From Chiloscyllium plagiosum (taxonomy: Eukaryota), in the NCBI RefSeq assembly GCF_004010195.1, contig NC_057726.1:37238092-37278109 (forward strand): 40,018 nucleotides of DNA, in the 5' to 3' direction. The translations under genes and the position numbers were made by a program. Within the stretch, counting starts at the first letter, position 1; every line of letters begins with the position of its first letter. Below the pieces are notes generated by a model that saw only the letters and a program-made list of their open reading frames with translations, was not told the DNA's origin and searched no databases. Positions 564 through 36,600 of this stretch are shown in pieces.

Positions 564-647
564 CACAACTCTTCAAGTGTGTCATTCACTTCTAAAGCAC
601 TTCTAAAATAATCGCTCCCTTTCTCACTGATACCATTGTCTCCGAGT
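564..647 (-). CDS. Exon 12: LRR (RLGDNGISEKGSDYFRSALEVNDTLEELW); gene continues beyond the window
   Basis: 84 nt, phase 2-2, TTTGTAG/GTAAGA; ends at a donor site, not a stop. Confidence 0.92.
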
Positions 648-3600
648 CTACAAACAAATATTCTCCATTGTATTAATGAGCACCCACAAAGTACAGCAAT
701 ATGTACAATGAAATCCCTTAAATATGAAAATGTATGAATCACAGATACGCATAACAACAAGAAAATAATAGAGCACTTTTAAAGGAGCCATTCTCTTAAA
801 AATGAATAATGACCTGCCTCCAGCCAAATTAATTCTAAGTAGGAAATCAGATGGGGAATTTGCTGAACCACCACTAACTGAGGCTTTTAACTGGGAAACT
901 GATACTCACGTAAGCCTCTCATAGCACCACCGCTGGTATTCACCCAGTGGTGAGGCTAGGTGGAGTGGTGCAGAAGGAGATCTGACCACGTTCGGAGCCC
1001 ACCGAACGAACCTTAACCGGGTGTGTATGCGTGTGTGTGTCCATCCTTCCTCATTGTACTAATTCAAAGGACCAAGCATCACGACTCAGTACTCCAATGA
1101 AAGACTCATCTCTGTCCTATTTGCCAATCCTTCTCCCATGCAGCCCACCACCGCCTTGGCCTGTGCCTAGTGGGTACGTGAAGCAGCAGATACTAGCTCC
1201 CTTGTGTCATTTAATAATTAGCACTGCTGGCTTCTGGAGGGTAAGCAGTTCTTGCTGGGTGGGACGTCTGCCGTTTGGGTCCTTGATTCTGGGAAAGGTC
1301 CACCACTGCCCAGTTAAATGATTGATCAGATTTAACAACAAAGATGGGACAGATGGTTTGCGCATGTTTCCAGCTCGCAGGTGGCATTCCCAATGCCTCT
1401 GTCCAATGTAGCCAAAGCTCACTGCAAACATCAGCCAGGCTCAGCCCATGAGCACACAGACAAGTGCTAAACCACCAAGCAATAAAAAATGTGAGTAAAA
1501 GCAAACTTAAAAGCTCACCTGAAAATAGGTGAACCTGGGAGAGATTGGGATTGGAAAAAACATTCTTCTGCGAGTGTACATTTAAGCACTTACCTTAGTT
1601 CAACCAAGCTGCGATTTTTTTTCATTGCTTCTGCCATATACATTGCACCTTCATCCCCGATCTTGTTAAATTGCAAGCTGAAACAGGACACACATATATT
1701 TAATTTCCCTTCAATAATGAGAACAGCCCTCTTGGCACCAAACTAACTCAATTCATTAATATTTTGAGCAGTTTGGGAAAAAAAGGAAACTCATTACACT
1801 CCTCGGTTCAATCTTCAACATATATTAAGTTAGCTCATTTAACTTGAGGTGGTCATGGAGCATTGGTTCATAGCCTGTAGGTGAAAGAGTGATAATGAAA
1901 TTGAACCAGGCTTTCTAGTTTTTGAGCTAGTGACTTCTACACTGCCACCTATTGATGAGGAGGGAAGAACAGCTTCAGGTATAGTTGTAATAATGGCTGT
2001 GAATATTAGAGATTCATGAATGAGGAAATGCATCCATAGCATGATGGAACCATCCTGTGCTTTCAGAAAGGGAGGGGGAAATGGGGATTTAGAGAAAGGA
2101 AAGTTGAATTCTTGAGGGGTAATGGTGCAGTGCTTTGGAACATCAAGCGCTCTACCATTCATTTGTAGAGTGCAGGACCACAAGTATCTCGTCTCATATG
2201 GTGGGAACCTTTCTCTGGCCAAGCAAAATGAAGACCATGAATAAAGAGAAAAAGCTCCAGAATTCCTCAGGTGGGAATGATCTCATTAATTTGTAAGGTA
2301 GTTTTATTTGCATGGATCAGGTGTAAGGCTGTTTTTGAAAACAGTTTCTCCATTGTTGACAGTAACTTTGGTGCTCATTTTCCCTTTGTAATGGAAATTT
2401 CCCAATGCCATTTGCTACTGCCCCAGGCAATTAGTTCTATAGACAAGGGTGCTAATTTGCGCTACTATTGGGGTCCATAGTCAATCCTGTGGAAGCCAAT
2501 ATACCAGCACTCTGTGGACCACCTATTATCAATATACAGTCACATTGCAGCATTGTAGTGAGAGCTCCTAGCTTAAGGAAAGCCAATCAACTGTTCTAAC
2601 AGTGAGTACTTTTAACTTAGCAAAGGACATAACTTCCTCTGAGGTATTGAGGAAATGGGTGGTGACAGAGTATGTCTTCCAGTGGGTTCAGGCCCTATTT
2701 TTAAATAAACACATTTAGAGAACAGTTCATATATTAATAAATTAATAATGTAATTGTGTCTCTCATTATACCTGGGTGATACAGTTACTTTTATCTTAGG
2801 TTTATTAAATAATGAAACACACAAGTTAATTTGTCAACAGTCCAGGAAGCAGAGTATTGAGAATTCCTCTTCATCAAGATAAGGATCCACAATGGACTTG
2901 AAATGGGAACCATGAACAGTGCTGTCATGAAATTTAGTAATATCCACGGGTAGTGCACACAAAATTTGAGGAAACAATACCCGAAAACTCGCAACGTTGT
3001 GTTCATCTCCAGGGCTTCAGCAATCGAACGGGCACCTTTAGCTCGGACAGAATTTGCCCTTAATCTAGTGAAATCAGAGAGATTTTGTTAAAATAAACAA
3101 AGTAAAACCATCAGTCATCATAACAGCAGTTAATTTTGTTAATAAATTCTCTTGCAAGTTTGACAAACATTTGATTTTGCTAAGTTGAATACATACCCCA
3201 ATGTTTTCAGACTACTGTTTGTTTTCAATGCATCAGCTATTTGAGCTGCTCCTTTTTCCTGTATGGAGTTGTGCTTTAACCTGTGAAGATTCCAGATATT
3301 CAGACAGTATAACATTTGTATCATTTGCTTGGACCTGAAGCTAGCAATACACAAATATCCATGGACACTGTAGTCCATCAGGTCACTGATAGCATCTGAT
3401 TTACTTATAACTGATTTGGAAATTTCCCAATTAATTTAGGACGCATGGCATACAGGGAAATTATTTATTGCAGTTAAACAGAGAAATGCAAGCTCTTACA
3501 GTACAAAACACATCAGAAACAGTTATTTTCATGTGCTAAACATGTGTTAATTTAATGTTGCATTTATTAAACTGCTTTTAACTTGAATCAGAAACACAAT

Positions 3601-6600: not shown

Positions 6601-9600
6601 AGTATATTAGTCCCCTTCCAATTTATGTGCAATGCGTCCTTCTTACACAGGTCACTTCTACCCCAAAAGAACTTCCAATGATCCAAAAATGTGAATCCTT
6701 CTCCCATACATCAGCTCCTCAGCCATGCATTCAGCTGCTCTATCCTTCTATTCCTGCCCTCACTAGCTCGTAGCACCGGGAGTAATCCAGATATTACTAC
6801 TCTCAAGGACCTCCTTTTTAAATTTCTGTCTAACTCTCTGTAATCTCTCTTCAGAGTCTCAATCCTTTCCCTTCCAACGTTGTTGGTTCCAATGTGTACA
6901 ATGACCTCCTGCTGGCCCCTCTCCCCTGTGAGAACATTCTGCGCCCTCTCTGAGACATCCTTGATCCTGGCACCAGGGAAATAACACACCATTCAGATTT
7001 TTTGCTGCTGGCCACAGAAACGTCTGTTTGTACCTCGGACTAGAGAGTCCCCCTAACACAAATGATCGCGTGGAATCCATCATGCTTTAAGATTACTATC
7101 CTGACGTATTCACTGATTTGTTTAACATTTGTTTAAAGATTTTGTTTTAAACAGTGAATGCTGATGTTACTGTAAGAAATCTCGTTTGGAAAAGTTAGCA
7201 TTGCAAAATACCTACATATGTGATATAATATTCACTGAAAATCCAATGATTAAATACTACTTCTATGCTAACAGATTTTTTTTAAATCATTTACTTCAAT
7301 GAGTCCTCCCAATTTCTGTACTGGCATTAGCTACAGTACAATCTAATAAAACAAAAATAACAATACAATAGTGTACTAATCATAACTTTTAACAATTTAA
7401 TCTTTTAGATATACAAAGTAAGTCCAGGCTTCTATAAAGTACAAAGTTAAGAACCTGAAAACAAAACTGTTGATCAACACAATGATACAACAGTTCAAGA
7501 AAAGAGTTTAGAATTAACTTTGTTATTCTTTGGCTGTGAATTTTAACTCGTAAAAAGTCAGTTTTTAACGAACAACATTTTGTTTAGTTTATATCTTCAT
7601 CGTGAACCAAAATTTGCAATTGATATTTGATTTTATCCACTCTGCCATTTTTAAGATGTGAAACAGATGAAGGCAATTTACCTTAAAATTTCTATTCTGC
7701 ACGTCTTACTTCTGAGTGCATTTGCAATGATCTCTGCTCCTTCATCTTCCAGCATGTTTCCCTCTAAACTGTGAATGAAAGGAAAATTATCATCATCTTG
7801 TTCACCTGGTATTTGTGAATATTCTTCAGCTAATGAAATATTCATTCCTGTAGCTGCATTGGGTGAACAACTCAATTTTAGGTAGCTCATTTCTGTTCAT
7901 GGCCTCCTATGCTTCTCATTGACCCAGGACTGACCCCTGGCTTTATGATAAGGATAGAGGGGGTGATATGCCAGATCATGAGGTTGCAGACTGTAGATGA
8001 GTGCAACTGTGCTCCTGCTGATGGCCCACAGTGACTCATGGATGTCCAGTCTTGAGTTGTAGATCACTTTGAAACCTATTCCATTCCCCACAGCAAAATG
8101 GACAGCAACCTCAATATGAAAGCAGGGCTGTGTCACCTGAAGGACTAGGTGCTGTTCATTCCTACTGGTATTGAATGTATGTACCTGCTACAGGTAGATT
8201 GGTGGGGATGAGGTCAAGTATGTTGTAAGGCCAGTTTTACAGTGGTGGGGTAGGGGGATGGGGTGGTGTTAAGGGAGTTGCAAAGAATGGTAGTTGGCAG
8301 TGAGATTTCACAAGGACCAGAGTAAATGTTAAAGGGCAACTCCCTCCTGACTGTGTTACCATCTCTGGAAATGGTGATGGGTGACAGCTGATGGAAGATT
8401 TGGTGCCGTCTGTAGGATTTTATCGAGCTGGTCTGTGGAGCAACTCGCAATTTTTACACAAGCTCACTCCTAAGATTAGTAAAGAGGACTTTGCAGGGTT
8501 GACTGGGATGGGTGCCCTCTTGTTGTTTTTGACAATGCCGTAATGTCAATCCAGTTTCACTCCTTTTATTATACTTTGTCGCAGTTAGATACAACTGAGT
8601 GACTTGCTAGACCACTTCAAGAGGGGAGTAAAGACTCAATGACATTGTTCAGAGTCAATCACATTGCTATGAGTCTGGAGTCACATGTAGACCAGACAAA
8701 ACAAGGAATGCAGATTTATTTTCCTAAAGGGCATTAATGAGTCAGACTTATTTTCACGGATTTGTTTCCACAAAGCTTTTCATTGTGTCTGGTTACACGT
8801 GACAATATATTCAATTCAATTCAATTGTTTTTATGGCATTCGACAATGGTTTTATGGTGACTAAAAGACAAGTTTCTAATTCCAGATTTATTAATTGAAC
8901 TAATAATTCACTATGTAAGATGGTGGGATTCAAACTTGTGTCCACCAGCATTAGAACTGGGCCACTAACTCCCTGTTGACCTGTAGGAAAAGGTACAGAG
9001 AATTGACCTAAGGCTGGGTTCTGAAATTGGGATTTTGAGGAGGTAACAGGCAATGGGGTTTTAGATCAAAAATCCAAAATATCGGGGCTGATAGCACGAT
9101 TGCCAGTTATGGGTGGAATGCTCATGAAACTAGAGTTTCCAGGCAGAATTATAGGGAGTTAGAGAAATTAGGAACAATAAAATGATTGGCAAATTCAAAT
9201 TAGAAGGATGAGAATTAATTTGAGGCACTGCTGGATCCGGAGCCAACATGGGAAGAAGGAGTGATGGATCATGGATGAATGCAGGCAGGGGATTTTGCTG
9301 AGTTGAAATTTAATGAATTATGAAGCCTACCAGGAGAACATTGGAACAGCCAAACCTATGTGACAGGGGCATGGATGGAAGTTTTAGCAATGGCTGTGTT
9401 TGCTGACACCAGCATATGTGAACCATGCGCTGCTTTAAATTACATTGGGGTTGGGTTTGTTGGGGTGGGAATGAGGGGAGACTGGGAGGACCATAGAAAA
9501 AGAGTGTCCGCCCACCCACCAAAACTGTCCCATGCACCCTTTCCCCACCACTGAAACCCTATTCAAATTCTTGTGCACAATACTTTTGCATGTGATGTCA

Positions 9601-12600
9601 CACACGAACTACATCTATGTGATGACACTGTATTTGGAACTGTGCACATGCACATTTCTAAATGAGCTCACATGTGTAGTTGCCCTCAGTTGCCAGTGTC
9701 AGCAAACATTGCCCTAAAGTTAATAACATTGAAAGTTTTGTACTTAATAAGATAGTATTCGTGACTTCAAGATGTTCCAAGCACTTTGCACCCAATAAAA
9801 TATGTTTCAAGTGTAGTCACTTGTGATGTGAAAATCTGCCAAACAACTTGAACACAGCAATAAGGTTACAGGCCAGATAATCTTTCTTAATGATGTAACT
9901 TGAGGGATAACTATTGACAAGATAGCTTATTTGAATATTAACATGAAATCTTCTAAATCTTCCTGAGAGAGTACACAGGCCTTAGTTTAATGCCGAATCC
10001 AAAAGATAGTGCACTATCTGCTATTACGGCAGAAAGTCAGCCTGAAGTATGTGCTCAAAGCTAATCTAGAATCGACTGACTCAGAGATGATAATGTTACA
10101 CAGCAATAGCTGACATCACAATGAGTGGCTTGCACCACTGTGGCACATAAAGGATCAGCCTCAAGACACACATTTTCAGAGTTTGCTCACAGTCACTTGA
10201 TAGTTATATACAACCGAAGTTGTTTATGGGACCTGCATGTAACTATGTTAGATCATTTTTCTCTAAACTATGGTAAATACCAGATTAATACAATATATGC
10301 AATCAAATATTTTCATTTTTTGTTACTGTTTAAGAAATTTCAATATCAAATGTCTGAATTGTAACAAAAGTAGATATTTTCGGTTTCTAGCTTCTGTGGA
10401 TTTTTAAAAATATGAATTTGTAATAAAGATTTTAAAATATTAGCCACAATATAAATGTATCAATTGCAGAACAATTCAATTTGAAAACAAAAAAGCAACC
10501 TTAATATTTAATGTATGCATATGTCAAGGTTGTTGACAGCATCATTTCAATGTCGAGAGTATGTTGCTGGAAAAGCACAGCAGGTCAGGCAGCATCCGAT
10601 GAGCAGGAGAACCAACATTTCAGGCAAGAGTTCTTCATCAGGAATTGAGGAGGTGAAGAGATAAATGAGAGGGAGAGGTAGATCTGGGGGGAAGGTAGCT
10701 GAGAGTGAAATAGATGGATGGAGGTGGGGGAGAAGATGATAGGTCAGAGAGGAGAGTGGAGTGGATAGGTGGGAAGGAAGATGGACAGGTCGTTAGGGCG
10801 GTGTCAAGTTGGAAGGTTGGAACTGGGATGAGGTGGGAGAAGGGTAAGTGAGGAAATTGGTGAAGTCCACATTGATGCCATGTGGTTGGAGGGTCCCAAA
10901 GTGGACACATTCTCCTAGCATCATTTAAATGCAATGCATGACACTTTAGTCAACTAATTTAATATTAAACATAAATCTACTAAAGTCTTATTGCTGTATC
11001 TTTAAAAGATAAAATGACCAAGTCACCAAAATTCTAGAGCATTCCCAATTCTTCGAGTTCATATATGAAGAACACATTTTAATACCTCAGTGTCTTGACT
11101 CTTGAGAAAACAGACTCGAGTCTTTGGAAACCCAAAGGTCCAGCTTTACATCCATCTAATTCTAGTGTTTCAATTGTTGTATGGTAAGACAGAAGGTTTG
11201 CAATTGCAGTGCAGTCAGTCACATTCAAAGAGATGTAAGAAAAGTTTACAGTATCACTAGTTTGGGAAGCAACTTGTTGTGTTAAATTTTCATTTGCTGC
11301 TTCATAGAGACAATGTGAGGCTGTAAGTTTTTGTCTTTTGTGTGCTGTGTACTTTACAATGTTTTCTGGAGTCAGCGTGTCTTCTTTAGGAACTTCAACT
11401 GCAGCAACATTTTTGATAGCATCAAATACTTCCCTATCTTTAACCTGATAATTAGGTACCAATTGCTTCACAAGTTTTCTGTTGCTGAGAGACACCAGGC
11501 CAGCAGTGAACCTCAGTACAATCTCAAACACACTGCTTTTTGAACTGAAGGCTTTATGAACATGATTTACTCCAGGTTCATTTGCAGAAATGCAATATAG
11601 TGCTGCAAAAAATTCTTGGTGTGTCAAGTGGAAAAATTGCCAAATGTGAGACTGCATCATCTTCAGGCTTTCTTTGGTGAGAATTTTTTTCCAGAAGGAA
11701 TTTTTGCCTTGAGTGATATTCTTTTCAATATCTTTTGTTGAGAATATTATTGTTTTATTGGTGACTCCATCCCATGCAAGTTGTGCTAATTTAATGATCT
11801 CATTTTTGTCTTCATCATCTTCTAAGCAGAAGGACTCAGGGTCTTCTTCCTCATCATTGTTACAGACCAATAAACACTTGGTAAATCTGAGGAACAAATC
11901 TGTGATTGTCCTGGGAAAGGAAGACAGCTGAGACCACTTGCCTTTACAGTGAAAGGACTTGTGGAGGTAGAAACACAGAATGTCACAAAATGCAGGAACA
12001 TAGCAAAGTCCAAATAAGGAATCAATGCTCTTCACCTTTTGAAAGACATGCTCAGCAGCTGTTTTATCCTTGAGACACTTCACAAAGTATGCAGCAATTT
12101 CATTTTTGGAAAATCCTAAAATTTCAGCACAACGATTAAAATATGCTTTGTTATCCAAATCAATTGTGGTTGGGCGGGATGTAATAAGGATGGTTGCATT
12201 GTGAACAAGGTCTCCCTTTATGATACTTGCAATCAAATGGTTCATGTGTTGAGCAATGGAGATGTGAACTTGTGAATAAATGCCAAAATCAAGAGAGGAT
12301 TTGAATTCATCCAATCCATCAAATAAAAACAGAATCCTACTGGGCCATTCTAATATCTTTGTGCATACTGCTCTCAGATGAGGGTAACTACGTATAATAA
12401 GCTCAGTTAGACTAATTTTCTCCTTGATTGTGTTCAACTCCCGAAAACTGAAATACAGCAGTATATTAAACCCAGAATAAAGTGGTCCACAGGCCCAACT
12501 ATGAGCGACTTTTTGCATCATAACACTTTTGCCTATTCCTGCCACTCCTTGCACTAGACAGACTCGTGGTGGTTTTTCCCCAGGTGCAGATGGTGAAAGG

Positions 12601-15600
12601 AGCTGTCTTAAATCAATACGTTCACATGCTGTATAATCCCTGTGTTGTAGGAGTTCATGCTCTGTTTTATTCCTTTCTCGAACATTAAGAATGACTAAAC
12701 TGGTGAAATGTTCTTGTAGCAAAGGTCTGGAGTTATCAAATGCAAAGTATGGTTTAATTCTCTCCATTTGTGCTTTTATTGTTCCTTTATGAATGGTCAC
12801 AACTTCAGAGATTTCTGTAATTACAAGAGAAAAGTAATGAGTCATGGTGAAACTTGCATTTTCTCCTATAATGGACAAAGCCCCAGCAAATCTGACAGTG
12901 TCACCATACTTAATATAGTACAAATATTGTACATTTACTTAATGAAAACAAATAAAGCAAACTTAATCTTTCTTGCTGCACAAGGTTGATTTATGTTGAA
13001 TTAAAGAGATTAGTATTTGTGCCTATATGACAACATCTGCTACAGGACTTTGCCCTACAAAAAAGGTTTATCTGAAAACAAAATAATTGGAACCTGAATA
13101 ATGGAGGCTTACTTGTGTATATAAAGGATTGTAAGGCATCAGATAAATTGTAGATCATTTTAGGAATTCAAATACGTCTTGTAGAAAGATAATAAGGTAC
13201 CCAATAAACTTGTTTAAACCGTAAAGTACTTCATTCTACAATGTAATAAACACAGTGTGCTATAAAAATGAACACTGGTGCATTCAGTATAAGAAGACAA
13301 GACACCATGGAATTGAAAGCTGTCCTTTGTTTAAGTAGCTGATTCTTTCTGATGTACCATGCAGAATAATAATGGCATGGCTTCCATCCAATCTAATCCA
13401 GGAATCCATGATGTTTGCAATGTAAATCAATTAGAACTTCGAAAAAAAAATCAAAGAGAATGAAATGTGCAGAATTTTTCAGTGTAAGTGAACTTGATAA
13501 AACCGGGCACTACACAAGTTAATGACAATCAGTAGAGTGGAAGCATGCTATTGTGGAGTAGATGGCCTGGATTAGATAGTGACCTGAATGTGAATGGGAT
13601 AGCTGATGAGGAACATGATGAAAAGACCAATTTAGGAGGAGTGCCTGTAAGTAACTCTGGCTGGAAACTGATGTTGGGAGTTTCCTACTATGATACCCAC
13701 TTCCAAAACTGGGATGAAAATTGCTCTCTTTAAGTGTGAAGACATCAAACCAAGCAACATCAATACAGATGTGACAATGGGTCCAAGTCTTTCATCAAAA
13801 TTAGTGAACAGAAACATTAGGATAATCTATATCAATACAGATTTATCTATAATGAGTTTAAATTATGTTCCCATCAATATTAAATAATTTCAAAATCAAT
13901 GGATCCAAGCTATTAACAATACTAGAATACTAAATGTGGAGATGTCATTTGTTACTAATACCCAAGAACTTATCTTTTACAAATCATGCCTACCTTCAGG
14001 GAAATCGGTTATTTGGATTTTTTCATTGGTTCCCTCAAATGAAACAATTGGTAAGTTTTCATGGAGAAGATCAATACTTGGCCTGTCAACTTTGTCAGTG
14101 TAGGATTCCAGTAGTGTTGTTATAAACTGTTTTAAACCAGGATAATAGTCTTCTGTGTCTTGCAGTACATTGAGAAAATTAGCACATGATTCCTGACCTC
14201 TGTGGCTTAGCATGTCGAGAAGAGTTCGCCCTTTATCAACGTCTGGTTTATCTTTTATTGCATTGTGGTCGTCTTCAGATATTATTTTCTTATTCACTAA
14301 AAGGTTTAAAAGTGGCAGTATATTTGGGCTGATGTAATTTACCACTGTTCGACGACCTTCTTCTATAGCATTAATTGCCCAGTCAGCACGCTTCAATTGT
14401 GATGGAAAATATCCAGGATCCTCACAAGCACCTGTTAAGAATGTTATAAAATCATTAAAAATCAAACTAAGCTAAATTTTAGAACTAATAGGACCATATT
14501 ACACAAAATTGACTGACTTATAGTTTTTTTTTCAATTTTGTAACCTACTGCATTAACTTGTCTGGCAATTTTAAATCATGGCTTGAAGTTCTAATTATTT
14601 CACAGATTAAGTAATGCAGATACAATATTTATTTCCCAAATAATCATACAAGGGTTGCTATTGTCTATTTTACCTATGTGTGTTTGACCTTTCAGTGAAC
14701 AGGTATTGGGGTCCCCTTAAATGTTTGAAGCTATTGCTGCTAAAAAGGAGCTACCTCAATCCAGGGAACGTTCTTCTTCCAGAGTAACTCTCAGATACCT
14801 CCAATACTGAGTAATGCAATGAATGTGCTAAAGGTTGCTCACAATTACATTATCTACTTCAGGAACTTGTACATATAAGTCGGGGATGTTTGCTGAGTTC
14901 TCTGGAACATAGTAGGTAAAAGTCATGGGAAATGGGGTAAATTATTAAAAATAGCTAGTTCTGCCTTTCCTCCAAGGACCCCACAGTATGTAAGTTGCTG
15001 GTATTTCAGGATCATAACTTGGAATGGAATATGAAATAATCTTTCTCCTCTCTCTCTTGCATAAGGTATTGACTCTTTGATCAAGTGTAGAACCATGGAT
15101 GTCTATTGGTTTCTGATACCGGATCCATTCTTTACAATTGAGCAGAGACTGATCTTGCACCATCTGACATTCACACTCGGTGAACGGCAAGGATTGTTGC
15201 AAACAATTCAGATGCTGAGGTTAATTTTGGTAGCTCTGTCATGGATAAGCTAATTTTACAAAGGGCTAAAATTTAATTTTAGAACCTCTTACTACTGAAG
15301 TAAACAAGTCAAGGGTGTGTTTTCTGATTTGTAAAGTTAGTTTCCAAAATGCTTAGAATACTTGGACAATATTGTAGAATTCTGTGCAGTGGAGCAGCAT
15401 TTCTGGTTAAGGCAGGGTACGCTCAATCTAAAATCCAGTGGAATTGGCTGCAGATAGAAGATGCTCCCTTTTTGCAGAGTGCCGCATGTTTGCAAACAAC
15501 AGAATAAGAAGATCAGATCTCAGAAATTCCATCACTTAAACAAGAGTTATGGTTGACTCATTTCAAAACAAAAGAAAAGTGATTGAATTACCTGCTTGAC

Positions 15601-18600: not shown

Positions 18601-21600
18601 CCAGACAAACCTTTACAATTCCCAGACTATTCTAATTCTGGCCTCCTGTGCATCTCCAACTTTAAGGGTTCCACCATTGGTGATCTGCTGCCTTAGTCCT
18701 AAAGCTCTGAAACTCTCTATCTTAACCTGCCTGCCTCTCGATTTCGTTCTCTCCTACCATACACAGCTTAATTCTTCACTCTGTGCCCAAGTTTTTGGTC
18801 AACTGTCCTAACATCTCCTACTATCTCAGAATCAAACTTCGTAATGCTCCTGTGAAGTGGCTTGGAAAATTTTATCATGTTAAATGTTTTACGTTAAGTG
18901 TCAGTTGTACCTGTTATTAAAATATTAGACAGAGGAATTAAGTTAAATATGTGAAGTCTTGTCTGCTAATATTACGCACAATAATATGAAGGCTATCATA
19001 TGCATAGCTATGTACTGTCAAAGAATTCCTATTTTGTTATTTAATCAATTTTGACACTGACTAATACAATTCTAATTTTATTATGCAGTAAAATAAATGT
19101 AACTCACCTTTGGTTTCCAAAGCAATAACTTTTGAAATACTGTGTTTCAGAGCATCATGCTGGACTTCAAAAGAATATATCAGCTTTCTTTTTGTAGCTT
19201 CTGTATTTCTGAAGGTGAGCTGAGATACTAAACTGTATGCTCCACTTCCTTTGTGATTTTCTAAAGACATGGCAATGTCATGTTCTCCTTCCGTGAAGTA
19301 CATTGTTTTGTCTTGTTCACTCTGATAATAATCCCCGATTTTTCTGTATTCCAATTGTTTTACAGATGATGAGGTGCTGTTCCATTTACTGATGAGAACT
19401 TTCTGGAAGTTACCCTCTTCCTCTCTGTACCAAGAGACTTTGACAGCTTTCGGCTTGAACCAGAGAACTGCACAAGCCAGAGAGACTGAATCATCTGTAT
19501 GGAAATAGTTTGGTTTGATGATGTCTGTCACTTTTGGAGCAACTGAAAAAAAGAACAAAGAGGAACAGAATCTCTTAAACAAACTGCCATTCTTGTAATG
19601 TGCTGCATTGATCATTTTCCTAGCTTTTGAACTTATTTTTATGCACCATTTTCTTTGGGTAGGTGCTCGAAGATATTCTTTGTAAGCAAATGCATTATAT
19701 TGTATCAATTGTATGATGTAAACCAATGTATTAGTTACATTTGTATTGTATTCCAACAAAAGCAGCCAGGTGGACCTCAGAATATGAGTTCCCTGATTGG
19801 GGCTGCTAATCTGGTCCAATCAGGGTGCCCTGGCTGACACTGAGAGCTGGCTCTGAGGGAGCTGGATCAATGTCAAGGGCTCTCCATGTGTAAATAAAGG
19901 GTGACTTGGTCACGGGAGACTGGCCTCTGTGGAGTTTGTTCAGTAATCACTTTTAAACACATAACTGTGTTATTGTGTTTTCCCCAGCAATGAATGTGAA
20001 CTGGTTGTGAAAGAGTTCTATTGGTGAAAGCTTGTCTCATCGTGGTGAAATTGGACAGCCATGAAAGAAAGAAGACAGTTTCTGGGCTAACCATGCTATT
20101 GGAATTAATACACAACATACTTGGAAATGTCAGGCCAGGTCCCTGAAATGGAGATTTGTCACAGATGCCTTGTTGATCTTGACAATGAACACTCAGACAG
20201 GTGCCAATATGTTTTTTTCACCCCAAGGTACAAGTTGATTAGGTTGCAGCTAGAGTGTTTTCTGCAATTCTGGAATCCACAATATAGGAGGGATGCTATT
20301 GCACTGGAAAGACTGCAGAGGAGATTTACCAGGATCTTGCTTGGGCTGGAGAATTCGAGTCATGAACGGTTATGAGATTGGCCGGGATTTTTTTTCTTTG
20401 CAGCAAAGGAGACTGGTGGTTGGTGGGGGTATGATTGAGATTATAGAAGTATGGAGTCATAGATGTGGTAGATCGAAAGGAACATTTACCCTTGATGCAA
20501 GAATCAATGACAGGTGGCATAGATTTATGGTATGGGGCAAGAGGTTTAAAGGAGAAGTGAGGACATTTTTTTCCACTCAGGGAGTGATGAGAATCTGCAA
20601 CTCACTTCCTGTAAGGGTAGAGGAGGCAGAAACCCTCACATCATTCGAGACATATTTAGATGTGCACTTGCAATGTGAAGAGAAAGTGAGGACTGCAGAT
20701 GCTGGAGATCAGAGCTGAAAATGTGTTGCTGGAAAAGCGCAGCAGGTCAGGCAGCATCCAGGGAACAGGAGAATCGACGTTTTGGGCATAAGCCCTTCTT
20801 CAGGAATGAGGAAAGTTCCTCATTCCTGAAGAAGGGCTTATGCCCGAAAGGTCGATTCTCCTGTTCCCTGGATGCTGCCTGACTTGCAATGTGAGGCATA
20901 GTAGACTATTGGCCAAGAGCTGGAAAATGGGATTAGGAAAGTTAGATACTCATTTTTGACCAGTGCAGACTCGATGGGCTAACGTGCCTTCTTCTGTGCT
21001 GTAGGCCTTTGACACTATGATGCTAATGTCACATTCATTGTTAACATAGTTCTGGAAGACAACCCGTACTGAGAGCAAGATATGATGACGTGGAGGTGGT
21101 CCCAGCACAGCCATGATAGGATTAACACTAGAATCAGAGTTGAGAGTGTGTTGCTGCAAAAGCACAGCTGGTCAGGCAGCATGCGAGGAGCAGGAAAATC
21201 AACGTTTTGGGCCGGTGCCCTTCATCAGGTCCAGCTCGAAACGTTGATTTTCCTGCTCCTCGGAGGCTGCCTGACCTGCAGTGCTATTTCAGCACCACAC
21301 TCTCAACTCTGATCTCCAGTATCTGCAGTCCTCACTGTCTCCTAACAGTAGAATCAGATAACCCAATTTAAGACTTTGCCTTATTTGCCATGGGGCAGGA
21401 TCAGAAGTGCATATAAAGACAGACCAAATAAATCAGCTTTGCTAGCCAAAAACTGGGTTCTTTGAAAGAGGAAGGGTAGACTGATCATCCATCAAAAAGA
21501 TATGCCAGGAGTTTCAAGGAGCTCTGACCACCTGAGATAAACCCTAGCTTACTAGTGCCTGGGTCATTAGGGGTATGTACAAATTCATATACTACATCTT

Positions 21601-24600
21601 ATAGATTAAATAAAGGCATTCTACACAAGTGGAACAGGATCTAATTTTCTATGCCATTTCAATGCCTACAGTGAAACCCACAAAAATGTGTCTTATGACT
21701 GGGTCCCTTTCCCTTATATCTTCAACTAATCTAAATGGTTAACAACTTTCAATCCCAATGGACAAAAATTGATTTATCTTCTGAAATTCAGGATTTAAGC
21801 AGTAAAAAAAGAAACCAAATTTCAAAGCAGGATTGAGAACCCAAAATGTGAATATTTTCCAGGCCTCATCTCAGTAATCCTCAGCTATTTTTAAAAATAA
21901 ATGCCTGAATTGGGCAGGAGATATTCTCAGTGTCCAATTGGCTGCAATGAAGATCTCTATGAGGTGGGAACGGTCAGCCTGATATCAGCAGCAAATGTTG
22001 ACAACAGCAATACTCAGGTCTGTCGCATTCTAAAGAGCAGGTAGCTCTTTAGAGGGTTAGCTTGCCTTAATAGAAGGAATGTAGACGTGCAGCCAAATGC
22101 AGATAATACCCATGCCACTGCCCCACATGCCCTGCACAAACACTTTTAAGTCAATGTAAGTACATTTTCAGGTCTCCCCACTATGAACTGACAGCTGGTT
22201 ATTACATGCATCAGATTGTTCAGGTTCACTGGACTTCCTTTTGAAAATGACAGTGCTATCCTCCCTGCCTCTAAAGGAGCTTAATGTTATTTGGAGATGA
22301 GATGCTTCCAGATTCTCTCTTCTCTGCTTTCACTCCTAAAAATAGCAACCTGTCCCTGAAGTGTCAGGATCCAGAGAGAATCCGTGAATGTGATTTTAAT
22401 ATCATTGCTACACAAGGTCCTGATCCCACTGGGAATTGAAAAGTGAGAAAGTGTCAGCATAAAAAAAACCCATCAGGAATGTATAGTTGAATGCTGTGGA
22501 TGATAAAAATAATTACAATCTATGGTACCAGAAACAGCAAGATATAGTACTATCTTTAAAAATGATTTATATTATAATATCTTCTACCTTACATCATTGA
22601 TAGAGCATCACTCTTACATGAACTGCTGAGGGGGCCAACACCTTTTAGGGAAACTAGAAATGGAAATGTGTTGCTGGAAAAGCGCAGCAGGTCAAATGCC
22701 CATTAAATTCAGTCTTGCCAAATTCACCCCATTCCCAAAATACCAAGTTCCAGAAAGTCTGATCATTTACCTTTTCCTTGATTGTTGCAAAAAATAAATG
22801 TCCAAAAACAAATGGCCATGGTGATCACAAAGGTTAGAAGAAAAGTGAACAATGTTCCTGATCTTATTCTTGGGTTGGATCCTAGAGAAATGCAAGACCA
22901 AAGACGTGTTAGTGTTGATTTAGCCAACACAGACAAACAGCAGTGAATAACTAGGATTCATCACAGGAAACAGAAAAGTTCTCACAACACAGTATAAGGC
23001 AGCATTACACCTGACGAATCGTAAACCTCCTTTATTGATAAATGAAGCAGTGGCCCCTCTTCTGTTTATAATCTCTGGTGAATAGCCCAAATATTTTGTA
23101 AGTCAAATGGCCTTACTATAGTCCATCTAATATATTAGATAAGCTTGAAATTTTTAAAATGTATTTCAGAGGACACCCATTAGTGGAATTCTTTCAGTAG
23201 AAATAGAAACGTGAAATGTGTGACAGTTCTGCATCTGCACAGCAATTTAGATTGTGATGTCAGTAAGAAAATAATTACTTATTGATTCAACATTCTACTC
23301 AGTCCCGCTCTGCACCCAAGATACACTACACCTAAAGTCTGTTTAGAAAATAAAATTTTTCATCTTTTTACCCTGAGGATCCAAAGCTGGCTTTATCAAA
23401 GTCTGCGTTTTACGGATATGAGGAGTGCAATTTGGTGATCATAATAAAAGCCATATGTTGATGAGTAGTACTATGACAATGAGATGGAAAAGAACTGCTT
23501 TGCTAGCGGTTAGAAAAAAAAAGTCATTTTTAACTGTTGGGCAACATAGATTAGATTAGATTACTTACAGTGTGGAAACAGGCCCTTCGGCCAAGAACTG
23601 CTTTGCTAGCGGTTAGAAAAAAAAAGTCATTTTTAACTGTTGGGCAACATAGTTAGCACTGCTGCCTCACAGTGCCAGAGACCCAGGCTTGATTCCAGCC
23701 TTGGGTGAGTGTCTGTGTGGGGTTGTACATTCTCCCTGTATCTGAGTGGGTTTCTGCTGTTTGCTCTGGTTCCCTTCCACAGATGTGCAGGTAAAATGGA
23801 CTGGTCATGCTAAATTGGCCTATTGTGTCGAGGGATGTGCAGGCTAAGTGGGTTAGCCATGGGAATTGCATGGTTACAGGACTAGGGTAGGCAGGTGGGT
23901 CTAGGGTGGGGTGTTCTGAATATCGGTGCAGGCATGATGGGCCAAATGGCCTCTTGCACAGGGTAGGGATTCTATGTCTCTGTATTTAAACATTTAGGCA
24001 TGCAACAGAAAGGGTTATTTTGGCTTGTATGTAAGATCCGCTACCAAACCCTGAAAAGGATTTGTAATAATAGAGGCTCCAAAGAGTAATTTTCCACTCT
24101 ACACTGATACCATTGAGGGAAAGCCAATTTCATGCAGACTTCATTGATAAATCCTCTGGAATACACACAAAAAACAACTGTGACTTGGGGTAAATAGCAA
24201 AAATGTTCATTTCCATATTTTGACCAAGGAACAAAAGAATCCACTTTAAAACTTCCACATAAATTAGATTGTTTACTAGACATAATGGAAGATTATTGCT
24301 TTGTCATCCTGTAATTTTCAAATGAATTTGTGTGAAAGTCTGGCAGTATTTCTATTCAACTATCCCTCTGAAATGTGAAAAACCTTCATAAATGCTCTGC
24401 AATTTAAAAGAACACGTAAGCAGAGAACAATCTGAATGATGAAACAAATCTGTGACAAAATTAAAATCTGGCAAAACTTTTTATAATGAATCAATATTTA
24501 TACTTGAAGGAACCAAATAATGTCTGTTACTTATAATGATCCATCTGTTGTATGGCTCTCTTATACAAATTCAAGCCAAGACCCCCAAAGTGGAAAAATA

Positions 24601-27600
24601 GAATTCATGTCATATTAGAATTGAGAAGTGTATCATGCTATTTCCTAGATATCATTCTCTTTTAACTACTTACCCTTGATTGTCAAACTAACAACTTTTT
24701 GTACAGGTATCTTTAAAGCTTCATGAATAACTTTGCAGACATAGGAAGCCCCATCATCTGTTTGAATGCCTTTGATGATAAGGAACGAAAGCAGATTAAA
24801 TGTCCCATCTTCATTTTGTTGAGGTGATCCTGTAACCGCTCTTGATGTAACATCAAGTTGGTTTTCACTGTCTTGTGAGCCACTTTTTAACCAAAAGATA
24901 GAATGATTTTTTGGATAAAAGTTTTTCATCTCACAAATGATTACTTTGTCTTCACCAGGTTCAATTACAATGTTTACAGTGTTCACTGAAACTGTAGGAG
25001 GTGCTACAAAGACACAAGGAAAAAGGATAAATATATTATTTTTATTAGCATTATTGGCATTACTTTACAATACATCATAACAATGTTAGCCAATGCAGCC
25101 CCTCAAACCTATTCTCCTATTTAATTAGTTCAGTGTTGGTCTGTGATTTAACTCCCAATTTATTCTTTGTCTCATATACCTCAATAATATTGCTCAATGA
25201 AAGTCCAGCTATCTCAGATTTAAAATTATTATTTTACTGAGTGCAAAAGTGAGCTAAAAATTCAATCATAATTTGCATGAAGTAGGATTTCCTAATTGGA
25301 CTTCTGAACAATCTGGCTCTGATTTTGGATAATACTCCCTCCCCCATCAGTGGAAATGACCTCTCCCTAGTGGTCATATCAATGCCCATGACATCTTGAA
25401 TTTTTGATGTTTGTATAATCTGTCTTTTGTAATTTATTGCTTGCAGCTCAGATCTTCTGACAAATACACTCAATACTCTCCCAAGACATCTGGTTTTCAC
25501 TTACAGCAGATACTAATGATTATGGATCACTTTTGGGTTTAATTAAACTGTAGATTCAACACCCATTCTTTACATATTTCAGTATTTAATAGCAAGTGGA
25601 GAAGAAATTTTGTTTAATTTGTTCAACACTTTTGATGGAAGTTATTGACCTCCAGGTGAACTCCACCGATACAGTCAAACTTGTTATTTCCAACATTTTC
25701 TATTTCTACTTTAAACTTCTAGCAGCTTCAGTACTTTCTTTTGGTTTAGTAAAAAGCATTCTCAGGTTGACAATTTTGAACTTGGATGGTCAAATGTCAG
25801 GCTTCAGTATTAAAGCTGTGTTCTGGAAATGGTGACAAAGCCAAGAATATTGTATTCTGGAAAACAGGTCATTTTGACTTATTGATTTATGTCCACGAGG
25901 TATGAAACTGCACTGTTCAGTTATTTGAAGAAAGGATCTACAATTGGCCATCAGGGATAGTAAATGCTTCACCCCAATAGTTCAGTTTGCTGAATGTAAA
26001 CAAAATCAATCCAACTCACATTATTGCTTCTGTTTTTTTTCTAACTTGCAAGACAGATTAGAGTAATTTTTCAGATATTGCACCGAAGCTAAATAAAATA
26101 TCTACTCTATCTCTTAAATAAGAAACACAATGGTCTGTATTTTGTGGCATCAGCAAAGCACCAGCATTCACCTTTGACTTTCATGAAAGTTATGCACAAA
26201 AATCTTCCAATTTCTGTGGCAATTTCCTTTTCCAAGGTCAGTTTTATTGTTGGTACCAAGCCAAAGTGTCTCAAAGCATCAAGCAACAGTGGATGTGATC
26301 GATTTGGATTTCCAGAAGGCCTTTGACAAGGTGCTGCATAGGAGGCTGCTAAATAAGGTAAGGACCAAAGGTGTTGGAGACAAGGTCCTGGCATGGGCAG
26401 AGGATTAGCTGACTGGCAAAAAGTAGAGTAGAGATAAAAGGGTCTTTTCTAGCAGGGCAGGCAGTGATTAGTAGAGTTCTGCAGAGGTCAATGTTGGTAT
26501 CACAACCATTCATGTTATACATTAATGATCTGGTTGAAGAAACTGAGGGCACTGTTGCTTAGTTTGCAAATGACACAAAGATAGTTGGAGGGACAGGCAG
26601 TGTTGAGGAAGCAGGGAGGCTTCCGAAAGAGTTGAGGAGAAAGTGACGACTGCAGATGCTGGAGATCAGAGCTGAAAATGTGTTGCTGGAAAAGCGCAGC
26701 AGGTCAGGCAGCATCTAAGGAACAGGAGAATCGACGTTTCGGGCATAAGCCCTTCTTCAGGAATGAGGAAAGTGTGCCCAGCAGGCTAAGATAAAAGGTA
26801 GGAAGGAGGGACTTAGGGAGGGGCGTTGGAAATGCGATAGGTGGAAGGAGGTCAAGGTGAGGGTGATAGGCCGGAGTGGGGTGGGGGCGGAGACCGCCCC
26901 TCCAACCGCCACCAGGGCAGAACCCCACTGGTCCTCACCTACCACCCATCAACCTCCATATACAGCGTATCATCCTCCGTCATTTCCGCCACCTCCAAAC
27001 GGACCCCACCACCAGGGATATATTTCCCTCCCCTCCCCTATCAGCGTTCTGAAAAGACCACTCCCTCCGTGACTCCCTCGTCAGGTCCACACCCCCCACC
27101 AACCCAACCTCCACTCCCGGCACCTTCCCCTGCAACCGCAAGAAATGCAAAACTTGCGCCCACACCTCCCCCCTTACTTCCCTCCAAGGCCCCAAGGGAT
27201 ACTTCCATATCCGCCACAAATTCACCTGCACCTCCACACACATTATCTATTGCATCCGCTGCACCCGATGTGGCCTCCTCTATATTGGGGAGACAGGCCG
27301 CCTACTTGTCTCTCTGTATGTCAATGCTCCTAAGGATTCTGTCCTTTATTGCATAATTCACAGCTGAATTTGATCTTCCAAAATGCATCAACTTGCATTT
27401 GTTTGGATTAAACTCCATCTGCCATTTCTCTGCCCAAATCTGCAATCTATCTATATCCCACTGTATCCTTTGACAATCTTCTTCATGGTCTGCAACTCTA
27501 CCAATTTTGGTATCAATAAACAATATAGGCAATAGGTGCAGGAGTAGGCTATTTGGTCCTTTGAGCCAACACCACCATTCATTATGATCATGGCTGATCA

Positions 27601-33600: not shown

Positions 33601-36600
33601 NNNNNNNNNNNNNNNNNNNNNNNNNNNNNNNNNNNNNNNNNNNNNNNNNNNNNNNNNNNNNNNNNNNNNNNNNNNNNNNNNNNNNNNNNTTCTCTTGAAT
33701 CATCCTCGCAATCGTTTCTTCTACGTTTCTAGGACTATTGGGAGGCCTGTAAAAGACTCCTAACAGGGTGAGCTCACCTTTCCTATTCCTAACCTCAGCC
33801 CATACTACCTCAGATGGCGAGTCTTCATCCATCGTCCTTTCCACCTCTGTAATACTATCTTTGACAAGCAATGCCACACCTCCCCCTCTTTTACCCTCAC
33901 CTCTGACCCTACTAAAACATTTAAACGCTGGGACCTGCAACAGCCAATCCTGTCCCTGTTCTAGCCATGTCTCCGTAATAGCCACAACATCGAAGTCCCA
34001 GGTACCAACCCACGCTGCAAGTTCACCTACCTTATTTCGTATACTTCTTGCATTGAAGTATACACACTTCAAGCCACTTTCCTGTTTACAGGCACCCTCC
34101 TTTGAAATTGATGCCATGTTCCTAACCTCCCTACACTCCAGGTCCTGCACCCTAAAGCTACAGTCTGGATTCCCATGCCCCTGCAGAGTTAGTTTAAACC
34201 CCCCCAAGAGCACTAGCAAACCTCCCACCAAGGATACTGGTGCCCCTCAGGTTCAGGTGCAGACCATCCTGTTTATAGAGGTCCCACCTTCCCCAGAAAG
34301 AACCCCAGTTATCCAGTTAGTACAGTGATTTTCTTCCCTTAATAGTAGAAACAGCCTTGTGACTTACCAGTTTATGCCAAAGTTGACATTTTCCAATTTG
34401 AACTCAGTTTAATTTAGAATAGTTTTTCATAATTGAAAGAGCAATTTGTAGGAATACAACAACAATTCAGGAAGTACTGTAATGTGTTATTTCTATTTCT
34501 TTGTGCCACCTTTATTTGGAGTTTCTGAGCATGATTTCTCGATTAGGTTTGAACCATAAGCAGTCATGGATCGCACTCAAAATCCTTAAGGACTTTCAGG
34601 AGCTGTCAGGCAGAGGTGACTTTTAAACCTCTTAATGTAAGTTAGATTATATTCAAACCAGATTAGATCAAATTCAAACCCTGAGGTGACTGCTACTAAC
34701 TTAATGCTGTCAAACCTCTCTTTCATACTCTTTGATTTCTTTACAGTTATTCACCCTGAGATACTAAAATTTAACTTTTCTCATTCTGTCAATAGGCTGG
34801 TTTTTGAAGCTCTTTCATCTTCAGACAGTTTTTCTGTTTGATCTTCGCAGCTACCTATTTTTACACATCGTAGATAATTTATCAGTCTGCCAGCCAGAAT
34901 GGATCACTTTTGCCATTCAGCTTTATTTTGTTTCATATAAATTCCCTCCTCTATTAATTTATTTGGGCAGGAGTCTCCCTGTACATTACAAGTTTACTTT
35001 CCATAAACCAAACTTGTTCACTCACACATATAAGTATAATTTTTTCAGGCTCACTGCACAAAAGTGTGAAACCTGTTCCACTCCAGTCGCTCAGTAATTT
35101 TTAATTCTTTACCATCTTTTCCATAACATAAAGTTTTGACTGGCAATTCCTCACCAGCACATTGTAGTTAAGTCTAGTTTCCAACCTGAATTGTTCCCAC
35201 ATTAGAGCTTTACAAGAATGACCCTGGAAATGGAGGGCTTGTCATATGAGGAGCAGTTGAGGACTGTACTCGATGGAGTTTAGAAAGATAAGAGGGCTCT
35301 CGTTAACATTTACAGGATAGAGTGGACACGGAGAAGATGTTTCCACTAGTAAGAGAGACAAGGACCAGAGGGCCCAGACTCAGTGAAGGGACAACCCTTT
35401 AGAAGTGAGATGAGGACGAAATGCTGCAGCCAGAGGTTGGTGAATCTGCAGCACTCATTGCTGCAGAGGGCTTTGGCAACCAAGTATTTAAGGCAAAGAT
35501 AGATAGGTTCTTGATTAATGAGGGGATCAAAGATTATGGGGAGAAGATAGGAGAATGGGATTGAGAAACACATCAGCGATGATTGAATGGCAGTGCAGAC
35601 TCAGTGGGCTAAATGGCCTATTTTTCATATCTTACGGCCTTACAGAAACTCACCTGGTGGATATTTTGGCATCCAGAAATGTACCTTCTCCACTGAGGTA
35701 ACTTGAAGTGTTTTCAATTTGAGTTTGGAAGTGCTTTTCTTTCATCACTTCTTACTGACTGTTACATTAAAAACTGTGAATGGATCTCAACAAAATCATG
35801 GTCAAGATCTTTTAGTTTGATCAGGTGATGTCAAATTATTTGTCACTTTACATCAACCTGCTTCCAACTGACAGTATTCACATCTGTATAATTTTCTCAT
35901 CCTACGTTTTAAACTTCTCACCACTATGAATGCTTATCCACACCATTAATGTTTCCAGAGAAGACAGTAAGTAAAGGAAAACCTCCAGAGGTCCTAAAGG
36001 TTTACACTTTAGGCATTATTTTTCACTCACCTGTTACCGACAGAGTAACTTTCCCTGTGGCTTTGTCAGAAAATACTGTCACTGTGCAGGAGTATGACCC
36101 AATGTCGTAAATCGTAACATTTTTTAGGAGTAAAGAAGCATTTGCTTTGCTTATTTCATTTATAGAGAGACTTGATCCTGGTCTATAGCTTTCATATTCT
36201 CCAAAGTCAAACAAGCAAACAGTTTTTTCCTCATTTCCCACTCTATGGTTCCACTCAATGACAATGTATCTCAAATCAACTGCAACAGCGCGTGAAAACG
36301 TGCAGCCAAGGAGGACATCTTCCCCAAAGGTGGCACTGACAGCTGGTGTGAGCATCACCTCCAGTGAAACTGCAATAAAAATAATAGACATCAAAAGAGA
36401 GTAGGGTCGATACATAGTTTATTAATCATTAATTTTATTTGTCAGCATTCCAAGAAGGAACAAATGGCTAGCAGTTTCAGGACCCAGCAGCTGGGAAACT
36501 CATTGGGTCATGTTTCATTCTTATAGTTGCTACACTTCGGAGAAACACTTGCTTGGCTATAAGGCTTATTATTACACAGAGACCTGGGAAAAAGGCTGCA

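Follow-up and report, generated by a model that had tools for sequence, protein, structure and literature searches.

The putative transmembrane (TM) exon on the minus strand of the window, the whole 40,018-nt stretch of Chiloscyllium plagiosum DNA analyzed here, is spliced into one mRNA running from an Ig C1-set exon (C1) through exons for a third Ig domain (Ig3), a CARD, and a NACHT region to the first LRR exon (LRR1). The encoded protein, hereafter the fusion, very probably has a cleaved signal peptide, a V-set domain (V) and C1 outside, and Ig3, CARD, NACHT, and LRR in the cytosol, as predicted from sequence. The TM exon is ordinary and already annotated; what is of interest is the protein, the topology of which it sets.

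The TM exon and its splicing

The TM exon encodes SNPRIRSGTLFTFLLTFVITMAICFWTFIFCNNQGK (minus strand 22881-22771), corresponding to residues 242-277 of a 1,313-aa protein, with a hydrophobic core at 251-272 and a Kyte-Doolittle(19) value of 2.37. The original prediction, a 111-nt phase 1-1 exon with a TM segment at about residues 251-272, is exact in coordinates, AG/GT ends, and translation. It had also called the exon hidden, which is true with respect to the ORF track; the exon is, however, already within the RefSeq model XP_043562816.1 (C. plagiosum, "NLRC3-like"), which matches the window exon by exon. The first ten exons of the 1,313-aa protein were compared one by one with the stored protein (P0001). 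The coding features are listed in Table 1.

Table 1 Coding exons of the fusion gene, in window positions
Feature	Position	Strand	Basis and remarks
Coding part of exon 1, ending in a phase 1 donor; residues 1-17, predicted signal peptide	38082..38133	-	P0001 match, GT donor; KD(19) 2.33 at 4-22
Ig V-set exon (B7-family type), predicted extracellular	36031..36369	-	Pfam V-set E 1e-9; AG/GT, phase 1-1
Ig C1-set exon with canonical Cys pair, predicted to be extracellular	24674..25003	-	Pfam C1-set E 2e-11; joined to TM exon in X2 and X5
TM exon	22771..22881	-	111 nt, AG/GT ends, phase 1-1; helix predicted at about 251-272
Third Ig exon (Ig3), predicted cytosolic	19108..19542	-	C1-like fold, long insert; second Cys replaced by Phe
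CARD exon	13994..14431	-	Pfam CARD E 2e-11; spliced to Ig3 and NACHT
NACHT-HD1-WH-HD2 exon	11086..12814	-	Pfam NACHT E 2e-35; Walker A, Walker B, sensor 1, and WH histidine intact
LRR exon 1, phase 2-2	7682..7768	-	
LRR exon 2	3197..3280	-	
LRR exon 3	2981..3064	-	
LRR exon 4	1594..1677	-	Ends inferred from residue match and 84-nt length, not from splice sites
LRR exon 5	564..647	-	

The minus strand of the window was scanned with a simple home-made splice-site score (acceptor at least 3.5, donor at least 3, length 45-400 nt), giving five open phase 1-1 candidates. The TM exon is the only one with a Kyte-Doolittle(19) value of at least 1.8 and the only one located in the C1-Ig3 intron. The same scan gave no open phase 1-1 candidate in the Ig3-CARD intron, in agreement with the earlier statement that no phase-compatible TM exon lies between exon 5 and the CARD exon. 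Since the acceptor score of the TM exon (3.7) barely passes the cut-off, the RNA-derived contigs are the decisive evidence for it.

Four runs (X1, X2, X5, and X19) were compared with window positions 7600-25200. X1, X2, and X5 are presumed to be RNA, with contigs that lack introns at GT-AG sites. In X5, from a related organism, one 3,827-nt contig with a depth of 19 is continuous through C1-TM-Ig3-CARD-NACHT-LRR1. The pieces of its record 14 (24673-25005, 22771-22880, 19105-19542, 13994-14428, 11086-12814, and 7680-7768) occupy consecutive record positions, so that both junctions proposed for checking, 24674-22881 and 22771-19542, are joined in this contig. A 1,262-nt contig in X2 (record 12) is consistent with them, showing C1, then exactly 110 unlisted letters, then Ig3 and CARD; one difference inside the TM exon is found at the same depth as that contig. 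The TM exon is thus included in spliced contigs of two of the four runs, representing two organisms. X1 contains the CARD-NACHT junction, and its coverage does not reach the TM exon, while the single-cell run X19, of which about 2% of the reads were sampled, has almost no exonic reads. The C. plagiosum genome (G000) holds a single Ig3 copy, with no second one to suggest a processed gene. The X5 contig ends in 492 unplaced letters, against the 391 expected for V and the signal peptide; the signal peptide-V-C1 junctions rest on annotated proteins and these 492 letters, not on reads.

The arrangement had been argued, from its topological coherence, not to be a chance juxtaposition, and the unbroken spliced contig from C1 through LRR1 together with the annotated orthologous proteins bears this out. 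Two neighboring genes or rare read-through, with the TM exon ending a B7H6-like gene, would suit the observation that each half resembles a stand-alone family, as well as a short X2 contig that covers 60 nt of the intron preceding the NACHT exon, where there is an in-frame ATG. This explanation is largely refuted, and we hold it to be highly improbable, because unbroken spliced contigs cross TM-Ig3-CARD in two organisms, annotations of the fused protein exist for 18 species (one record being author-deposited), and a stop codon is absent after both the TM and Ig3 exons.

The two RNA contigs should also be noted at base 22804, where the reference encodes W267. Both X2 and X5 have G at residue 267, and 17 of the 18 orthologues have G or A there, suggesting either a rare allele or an assembly error in the reference.

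The TM exon is symmetric, and the frame would be kept on skipping, as had been pointed out; nevertheless, none of the 38 annotated isoforms of the gene skips it alone. Such skipping is absent from the listed contigs too, though contigs drop rare variants and repeats swamp the joint table (623 joints beyond those listed). The TM segment is contained in 37 of the 38 isoforms, and in the exception, Mustelus isoform X5, C1 and TM are skipped together. Two C. plagiosum isoforms (P0016 and P0018) begin in the V-C1 intron and have neither the signal peptide nor V. The in-frame ATG mentioned above, at window position 12845 (minus strand) in the intron just upstream of the NACHT exon and within one low-depth X2 contig, could be the start of a soluble NACHT-LRR form or could reflect unspliced RNA.

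Predicted topology and features of the TM helix

In every full-length orthologue tested, hydropathy predicts a signal peptide followed by a single strong hydrophobic segment; a weaker segment (KD 1.6-1.7) lies inside the NACHT region. The disposition of cysteines and sequons was compared on both sides of the TM segment in 18 orthologues, counts that come from related, non-independent sequences. The second canonical (F-strand) Cys of Ig3 is replaced by Phe in all 18, whereas the Cys pair of the outer C1 is intact in 17. The sequons N94 and N101 in V are present in 18/18 and an Ig3 sequon in 8/18. In 39 single-TM proteins of the wider family (among 65, those whose only TM lies at 200-350; five partial domains set aside), both Cys residues are found in 49 of 52 C1-like domains before the TM and in 104 of 224 behind it. 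Since nearly half of the post-TM domains keep both, the loss is a tendency. The pattern as a whole fits an oxidizing environment outside and a reducing one inside. The flanking charges show no clear positive-inside bias, C. plagiosum having two basic residues on each flank.

Judging from hydropathy, the Cys loss in Ig3, and the sequons in V, the topology originally put forward, with V-C1 outside and Ig3-CARD-NACHT-LRR inside, is supported as a prediction. The accompanying argument that an NLR must be cytosolic agrees with the predicted placement but has been challenged, since a sea cucumber paper reports an extracellular NACHT (PMC13133943). A structure model of a near full-length whale shark isoform shows formed Ig domains, a 24-residue TM helix, and a CARD, with a low-confidence NACHT (pTM 0.30); because of this low confidence, the model gives no domain packing.

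T257, T261, C265, and T268 in the predicted helix are invariant and T253 is kept in 17/18, all lying within a 120-degree arc. An i+4 Thr/Ser/Cys stripe of this kind occurs in 18/18 TMs of the fusion vs. 1/27 TMs of non-NLR family members, the pattern having been defined after viewing these related sequences; its helical periodicity is borderline (p 0.014-0.16 depending on the angle). We infer that the stripe may be a helix-packing face gained with the NLR. A TM homodimer prediction scored 0.02, too low to read for or against dimers.

The proposal of two palmitoylated Cys residues near the cytosolic end does not hold as a conserved feature. C272 is present in only 4/18 orthologues, Tyr being found in 14/18, and the invariant C265 is located seven residues inside the predicted helix on its Thr-rich face. 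Acylation of C265 may still take place.

Conservation, ectodomain, and family origin

The nurse shark orthologue (QTT61908.1; 1,318 aa, 88% identical) contains the TM segment and all the domains. Its deposited name is "natural killer cell cytotoxicity receptor 3 ligand (B7H6)", whereas the RefSeq models are called "NLRC3-like/NOD1-like", names that look automatic; each database name thus reflects just one of the two halves, B7H6 or NLR. Conservation of the exon in related genomes, which had been suggested as a check, is evident from an alignment (A2) of 18 elasmobranch species (sharks and rays, one sequence each), since the hydrophobic TM segment is kept in all 18. We take these species to span nine orders. 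No orthologue in chimaera, skates, or bony vertebrates is among the matches listed, from searches that were length- or word-limited or clustered. The other NACHT exons in the C. plagiosum genome are at most 41% identical. The fusion gene, a single copy in C. plagiosum, is conserved in sharks and rays.

The domains behind Ig3 are those of an NLR. The CARD profile match is 41-44 bits, a death-fold effector thus preceding NACHT; Pfam NACHT and HD2 are both above cut-off; and the LRR_6 profile scores 46 bits against a cut-off of 23.4. Five LRR exons lie inside the window, and the last coding exon is about 1.5 kb past the window start (in L003). The Walker A/B motifs, sensor 1, and the WH His are invariant or nearly so in the 18 orthologues, and the best solved match of NACHT is NLRP3. 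The CARD-NACHT-LRR order, one large NACHT exon, 84-nt phase 2-2 LRR exons, and intact motifs are shared with NOD1/NLRC3/NLRP3. Unlike them, the fusion adds a signal peptide, Ig domains, and a TM in front, and its tail has no close relative outside elasmobranchs among the matches listed (72-100% identity within elasmobranchs; next 26-28%, teleost FISNA-type NLRs). With a predicted signal peptide and TM, the fusion is not a soluble cytosolic protein, a usual though not formal feature of NLRs.

The B7-H6 likeness of the ectodomain and the inheritance of the Ig-TM-Ig layout from an older family had no place in the original prediction. The predicted layout, type I with V then C Ig domains, is that of the B7 family, and human B7-H6 shares the V plus C1-type ectodomain. 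Among solved structures, V-C1 best matches human B7-H6 (NCR3LG1; 91.6 bits), followed by B7-H3 (88) and TAPBPR (69), so that the lead of B7-H6 is only 3 bits; for C1 alone, B7-H6 is the best non-antibody match. Ig3 gives a model with a pLDDT of 81.7, and its Foldseek matches are antibody chains. The face of human B7-H6 for NKp30 consists of 11 contact residues according to Table II of PMC3135353, T127 and P128 accounting for 44% of the contacts. Three of the 11 are identical in the shark protein (F73, G74, and K120, each in 18/18), and F and S occupy the positions of T127 and P128. The fusion differs from human B7-H6 also in its additional cytosolic Ig and NLR and in its PLEKHF1-like neighbor. 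The equivalent V face is nearly fixed among elasmobranchs, which suggests a fixed (self) partner.

A search with Ig3 found 63 proteins, most of which have V-C1-TM followed by several C1-like domains. They are mostly "uncharacterized", some being named NCR3LG1-like, and their named hosts are chimaera, sharks, rays/skate, bichirs, coelacanth, lungfish, amphibians, and a lizard. These jawed-vertebrate V-C1-TM-(Ig)n proteins share with the fusion the domain order, the TM-to-Ig junction, and the phase 1-1 TM exon (seen in a paralogue). They differ in having several post-TM Ig domains and a plain hydrophobic TM, and none of the 65 scanned has a CARD, NACHT, or LRR match. In C. plagiosum, such genes, with several predicted cytosolic Ig domains, form a cluster on C16 (32.65-33.0 Mb; L009-L015), while the fusion gene is on C17, adjoining the PLEKHF1-like gene. 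One C16 paralogue has its exons in the same arrangement, its TM exon being 114-117 nt long and likewise phase 1-1. A Kir-type gene, checked for synteny with human 11p15, lies 11 Mb from the cluster.

In a V-C1 tree of 33 rows, without human B7-H6 and poorly resolved at its base, the fusion forms one long-branch group (100/100), and the two shark paralogues lacking an NLR are not its sister. Since the C16 paralogue and the family share the plan of the fusion, the TM exon and cytosolic Ig appear to be inherited from this B7H6-like family. The new step would then be the CARD-NACHT-LRR tail, which we infer was joined at a phase 1 intron by exon shuffling. In this large, mostly unnamed family, Ig domains thus lie on the side predicted to be cytosolic, with the effector behind them swapped. 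Among the Xenopus/Rana records (P0038, P0080, and P0106), a Xenopus member has tachylectin domains behind TM-Ig in place of an NLR, and a Rana member has an annotated isoform without its 37-aa TM segment.

In vertebrates, NLRs are regarded as soluble sensors in the cytosol, and B7 proteins as short-tailed surface ligands. Flajnik et al. 2012 reportedly noted unusual cytoplasmic domains in frog B7H6, and QTT61908.1 presumably comes from Kinlein et al. 2021; both lie outside the literature searched, in which no description of a B7H6-like/NLR fusion was found. A prior description is quite possible, since the complete sequence was available to those who deposited QTT61908.1. The accessible part of the whale shark genome paper (PMC8455134), a shark NLR survey, mentions no Ig- or TM-bearing NLR. 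As far as shown within the searchable literature, the receptor-NLR is a new form of membrane NLR for vertebrates.

Membrane NLRs are described in invertebrates, namely the sea cucumber AjNLRC4 (PMC8699970) and AjNLR-new (PMC13133943) and the anthozoan multi-TM NLRs (PMC3879445). They resemble the fusion in combining an Ig or TM with NACHT in a membrane protein, the two sea cucumber proteins having the order Ig-TM-NACHT. AjNLRC4 differs in having two TMs and neither CARD nor LRR and in signaling to actin, whereas the fusion has one TM with CARD and LRR; the anthozoan proteins have 3-4 TMs and no Ig. The shark fusion is likely independent of them in origin.

Candidate modes of action

We give roughly an even chance that the fusion is a type I surface receptor-NLR that an extracellular ligand switches on by clustering it. 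The V domains would be brought together by a conserved self counter-receptor, probably an NCR3/NKp30-type protein, and the TM helices would pack via the Thr/Cys face. Ig3 would be a spacer keeping the NLR off the membrane. Proximity would then drive ATP-dependent oligomerization of NACHT, and a partner with a CARD, either RIPK2 or an inflammatory caspase, would be drawn to the clustered CARDs. Ligand-driven clustering is favored on the basis of the B7-H6 match, the near-fixed V face, the intact NTPase motifs, and the CARD resemblance. A precedent is AjNLRC4, which was tested as a receptor and in which, according to PMC8699970, the outer Ig binds the ligand and the inner NACHT signals.

Against clustering, most of the NKp30-contact residues, the two main ones included, are replaced, and the mean identity across orthologues (87%) of the LRR fits a cytosolic ligand equally well. 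Conservation is highest in the LRR and helical domains (87% vs. 78% for V and C1), as expected if Ig-TM merely placed a conventional NLR at the surface, endosome, ER, or contacts, and the LRR sensed microbial or damage signals in the cytosol there. Being complete, the NLR could act alone, and TAPBPR, an ER protein, is among the ectodomain matches. Such a membrane tether, which we consider unlikely though well worth weighing, needs neither an invariant V face nor a polar TM stripe specific to the fusion.

The V face bears also on an integrated decoy or guard, in which the B7-H6-like part would lure viral proteins or proteases that eliminate NK ligands, and the NLR would be freed once this part is bound, shed, or degraded. 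Baits under pathogen pressure usually diversify, whereas V averages 78% identity and its presumed face is nearly invariant, and this reading appears improbable. It draws on the down-regulation of human B7-H6 by HCMV US18/US20 and HHV-6B and its shedding by metalloproteases (PMC6514059), and on the fusion being a single copy apart from the C16 family cluster.

The best solved structures for the CARD are ICEBERG (34 bits), NOD1 (24), and caspase-1 (15). The first place of ICEBERG would suit an inhibitory receptor that damps NF-kB or caspase-1 upon contact in the manner of NLRC3 or CARD-only proteins, as would the CARD-less isoforms annotated in two species, a sawshark and an electric ray (P0008 and P0036). 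However, these CARD scores are low, the activation motifs are intact, and ICEBERG itself resembles caspase-1; we regard inhibition as quite improbable.

Returning to clustering, we suggest tentatively, and with less conviction than for the receptor mode itself, that sharks and rays possess a single-chain cell-surface inflammasome/nodosome. The fusion would be a backward-signaling NK-receptor ligand, so that contact with an NCR3-bearing lymphocyte would directly set off NLR assembly in the target cell, with inflammation or lytic death of that cell as the outcome. Its origin would be a single event in which CARD-NACHT-LRR replaced the cytosolic Ig tail of a B7H6-like gene, and it would have been retained across elasmobranchs. 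If true, surface contact is wired straight to an innate-immune switch. As a natural B7/NLR fusion, the protein makes outside-in NLR activation and reverse signaling of an NK ligand testable in one chain.

Several features of the surrounding DNA should be noted. LINE-like reverse-transcriptase fragments, which we take to be of CR1 type, occur in the introns at about window positions 3800-7000, 27900-29400, and 32900-34250, and the V-C1 intron contains an assembly gap (N run, 32922-33698). ETS-like and IRF/ISRE-like motifs at 38248-38210 (minus strand), about 100 nt upstream of the start codon, make an interferon-inducible promoter possible. About 26 kb before the window start, a PLEKHF1-like single-ORF PH+FYVE gene lies downstream on the same strand (L008:3105-3938, minus). 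The basking shark orthologue of the fusion carries the name PLEKHF1, suggesting a merged model or read-through.
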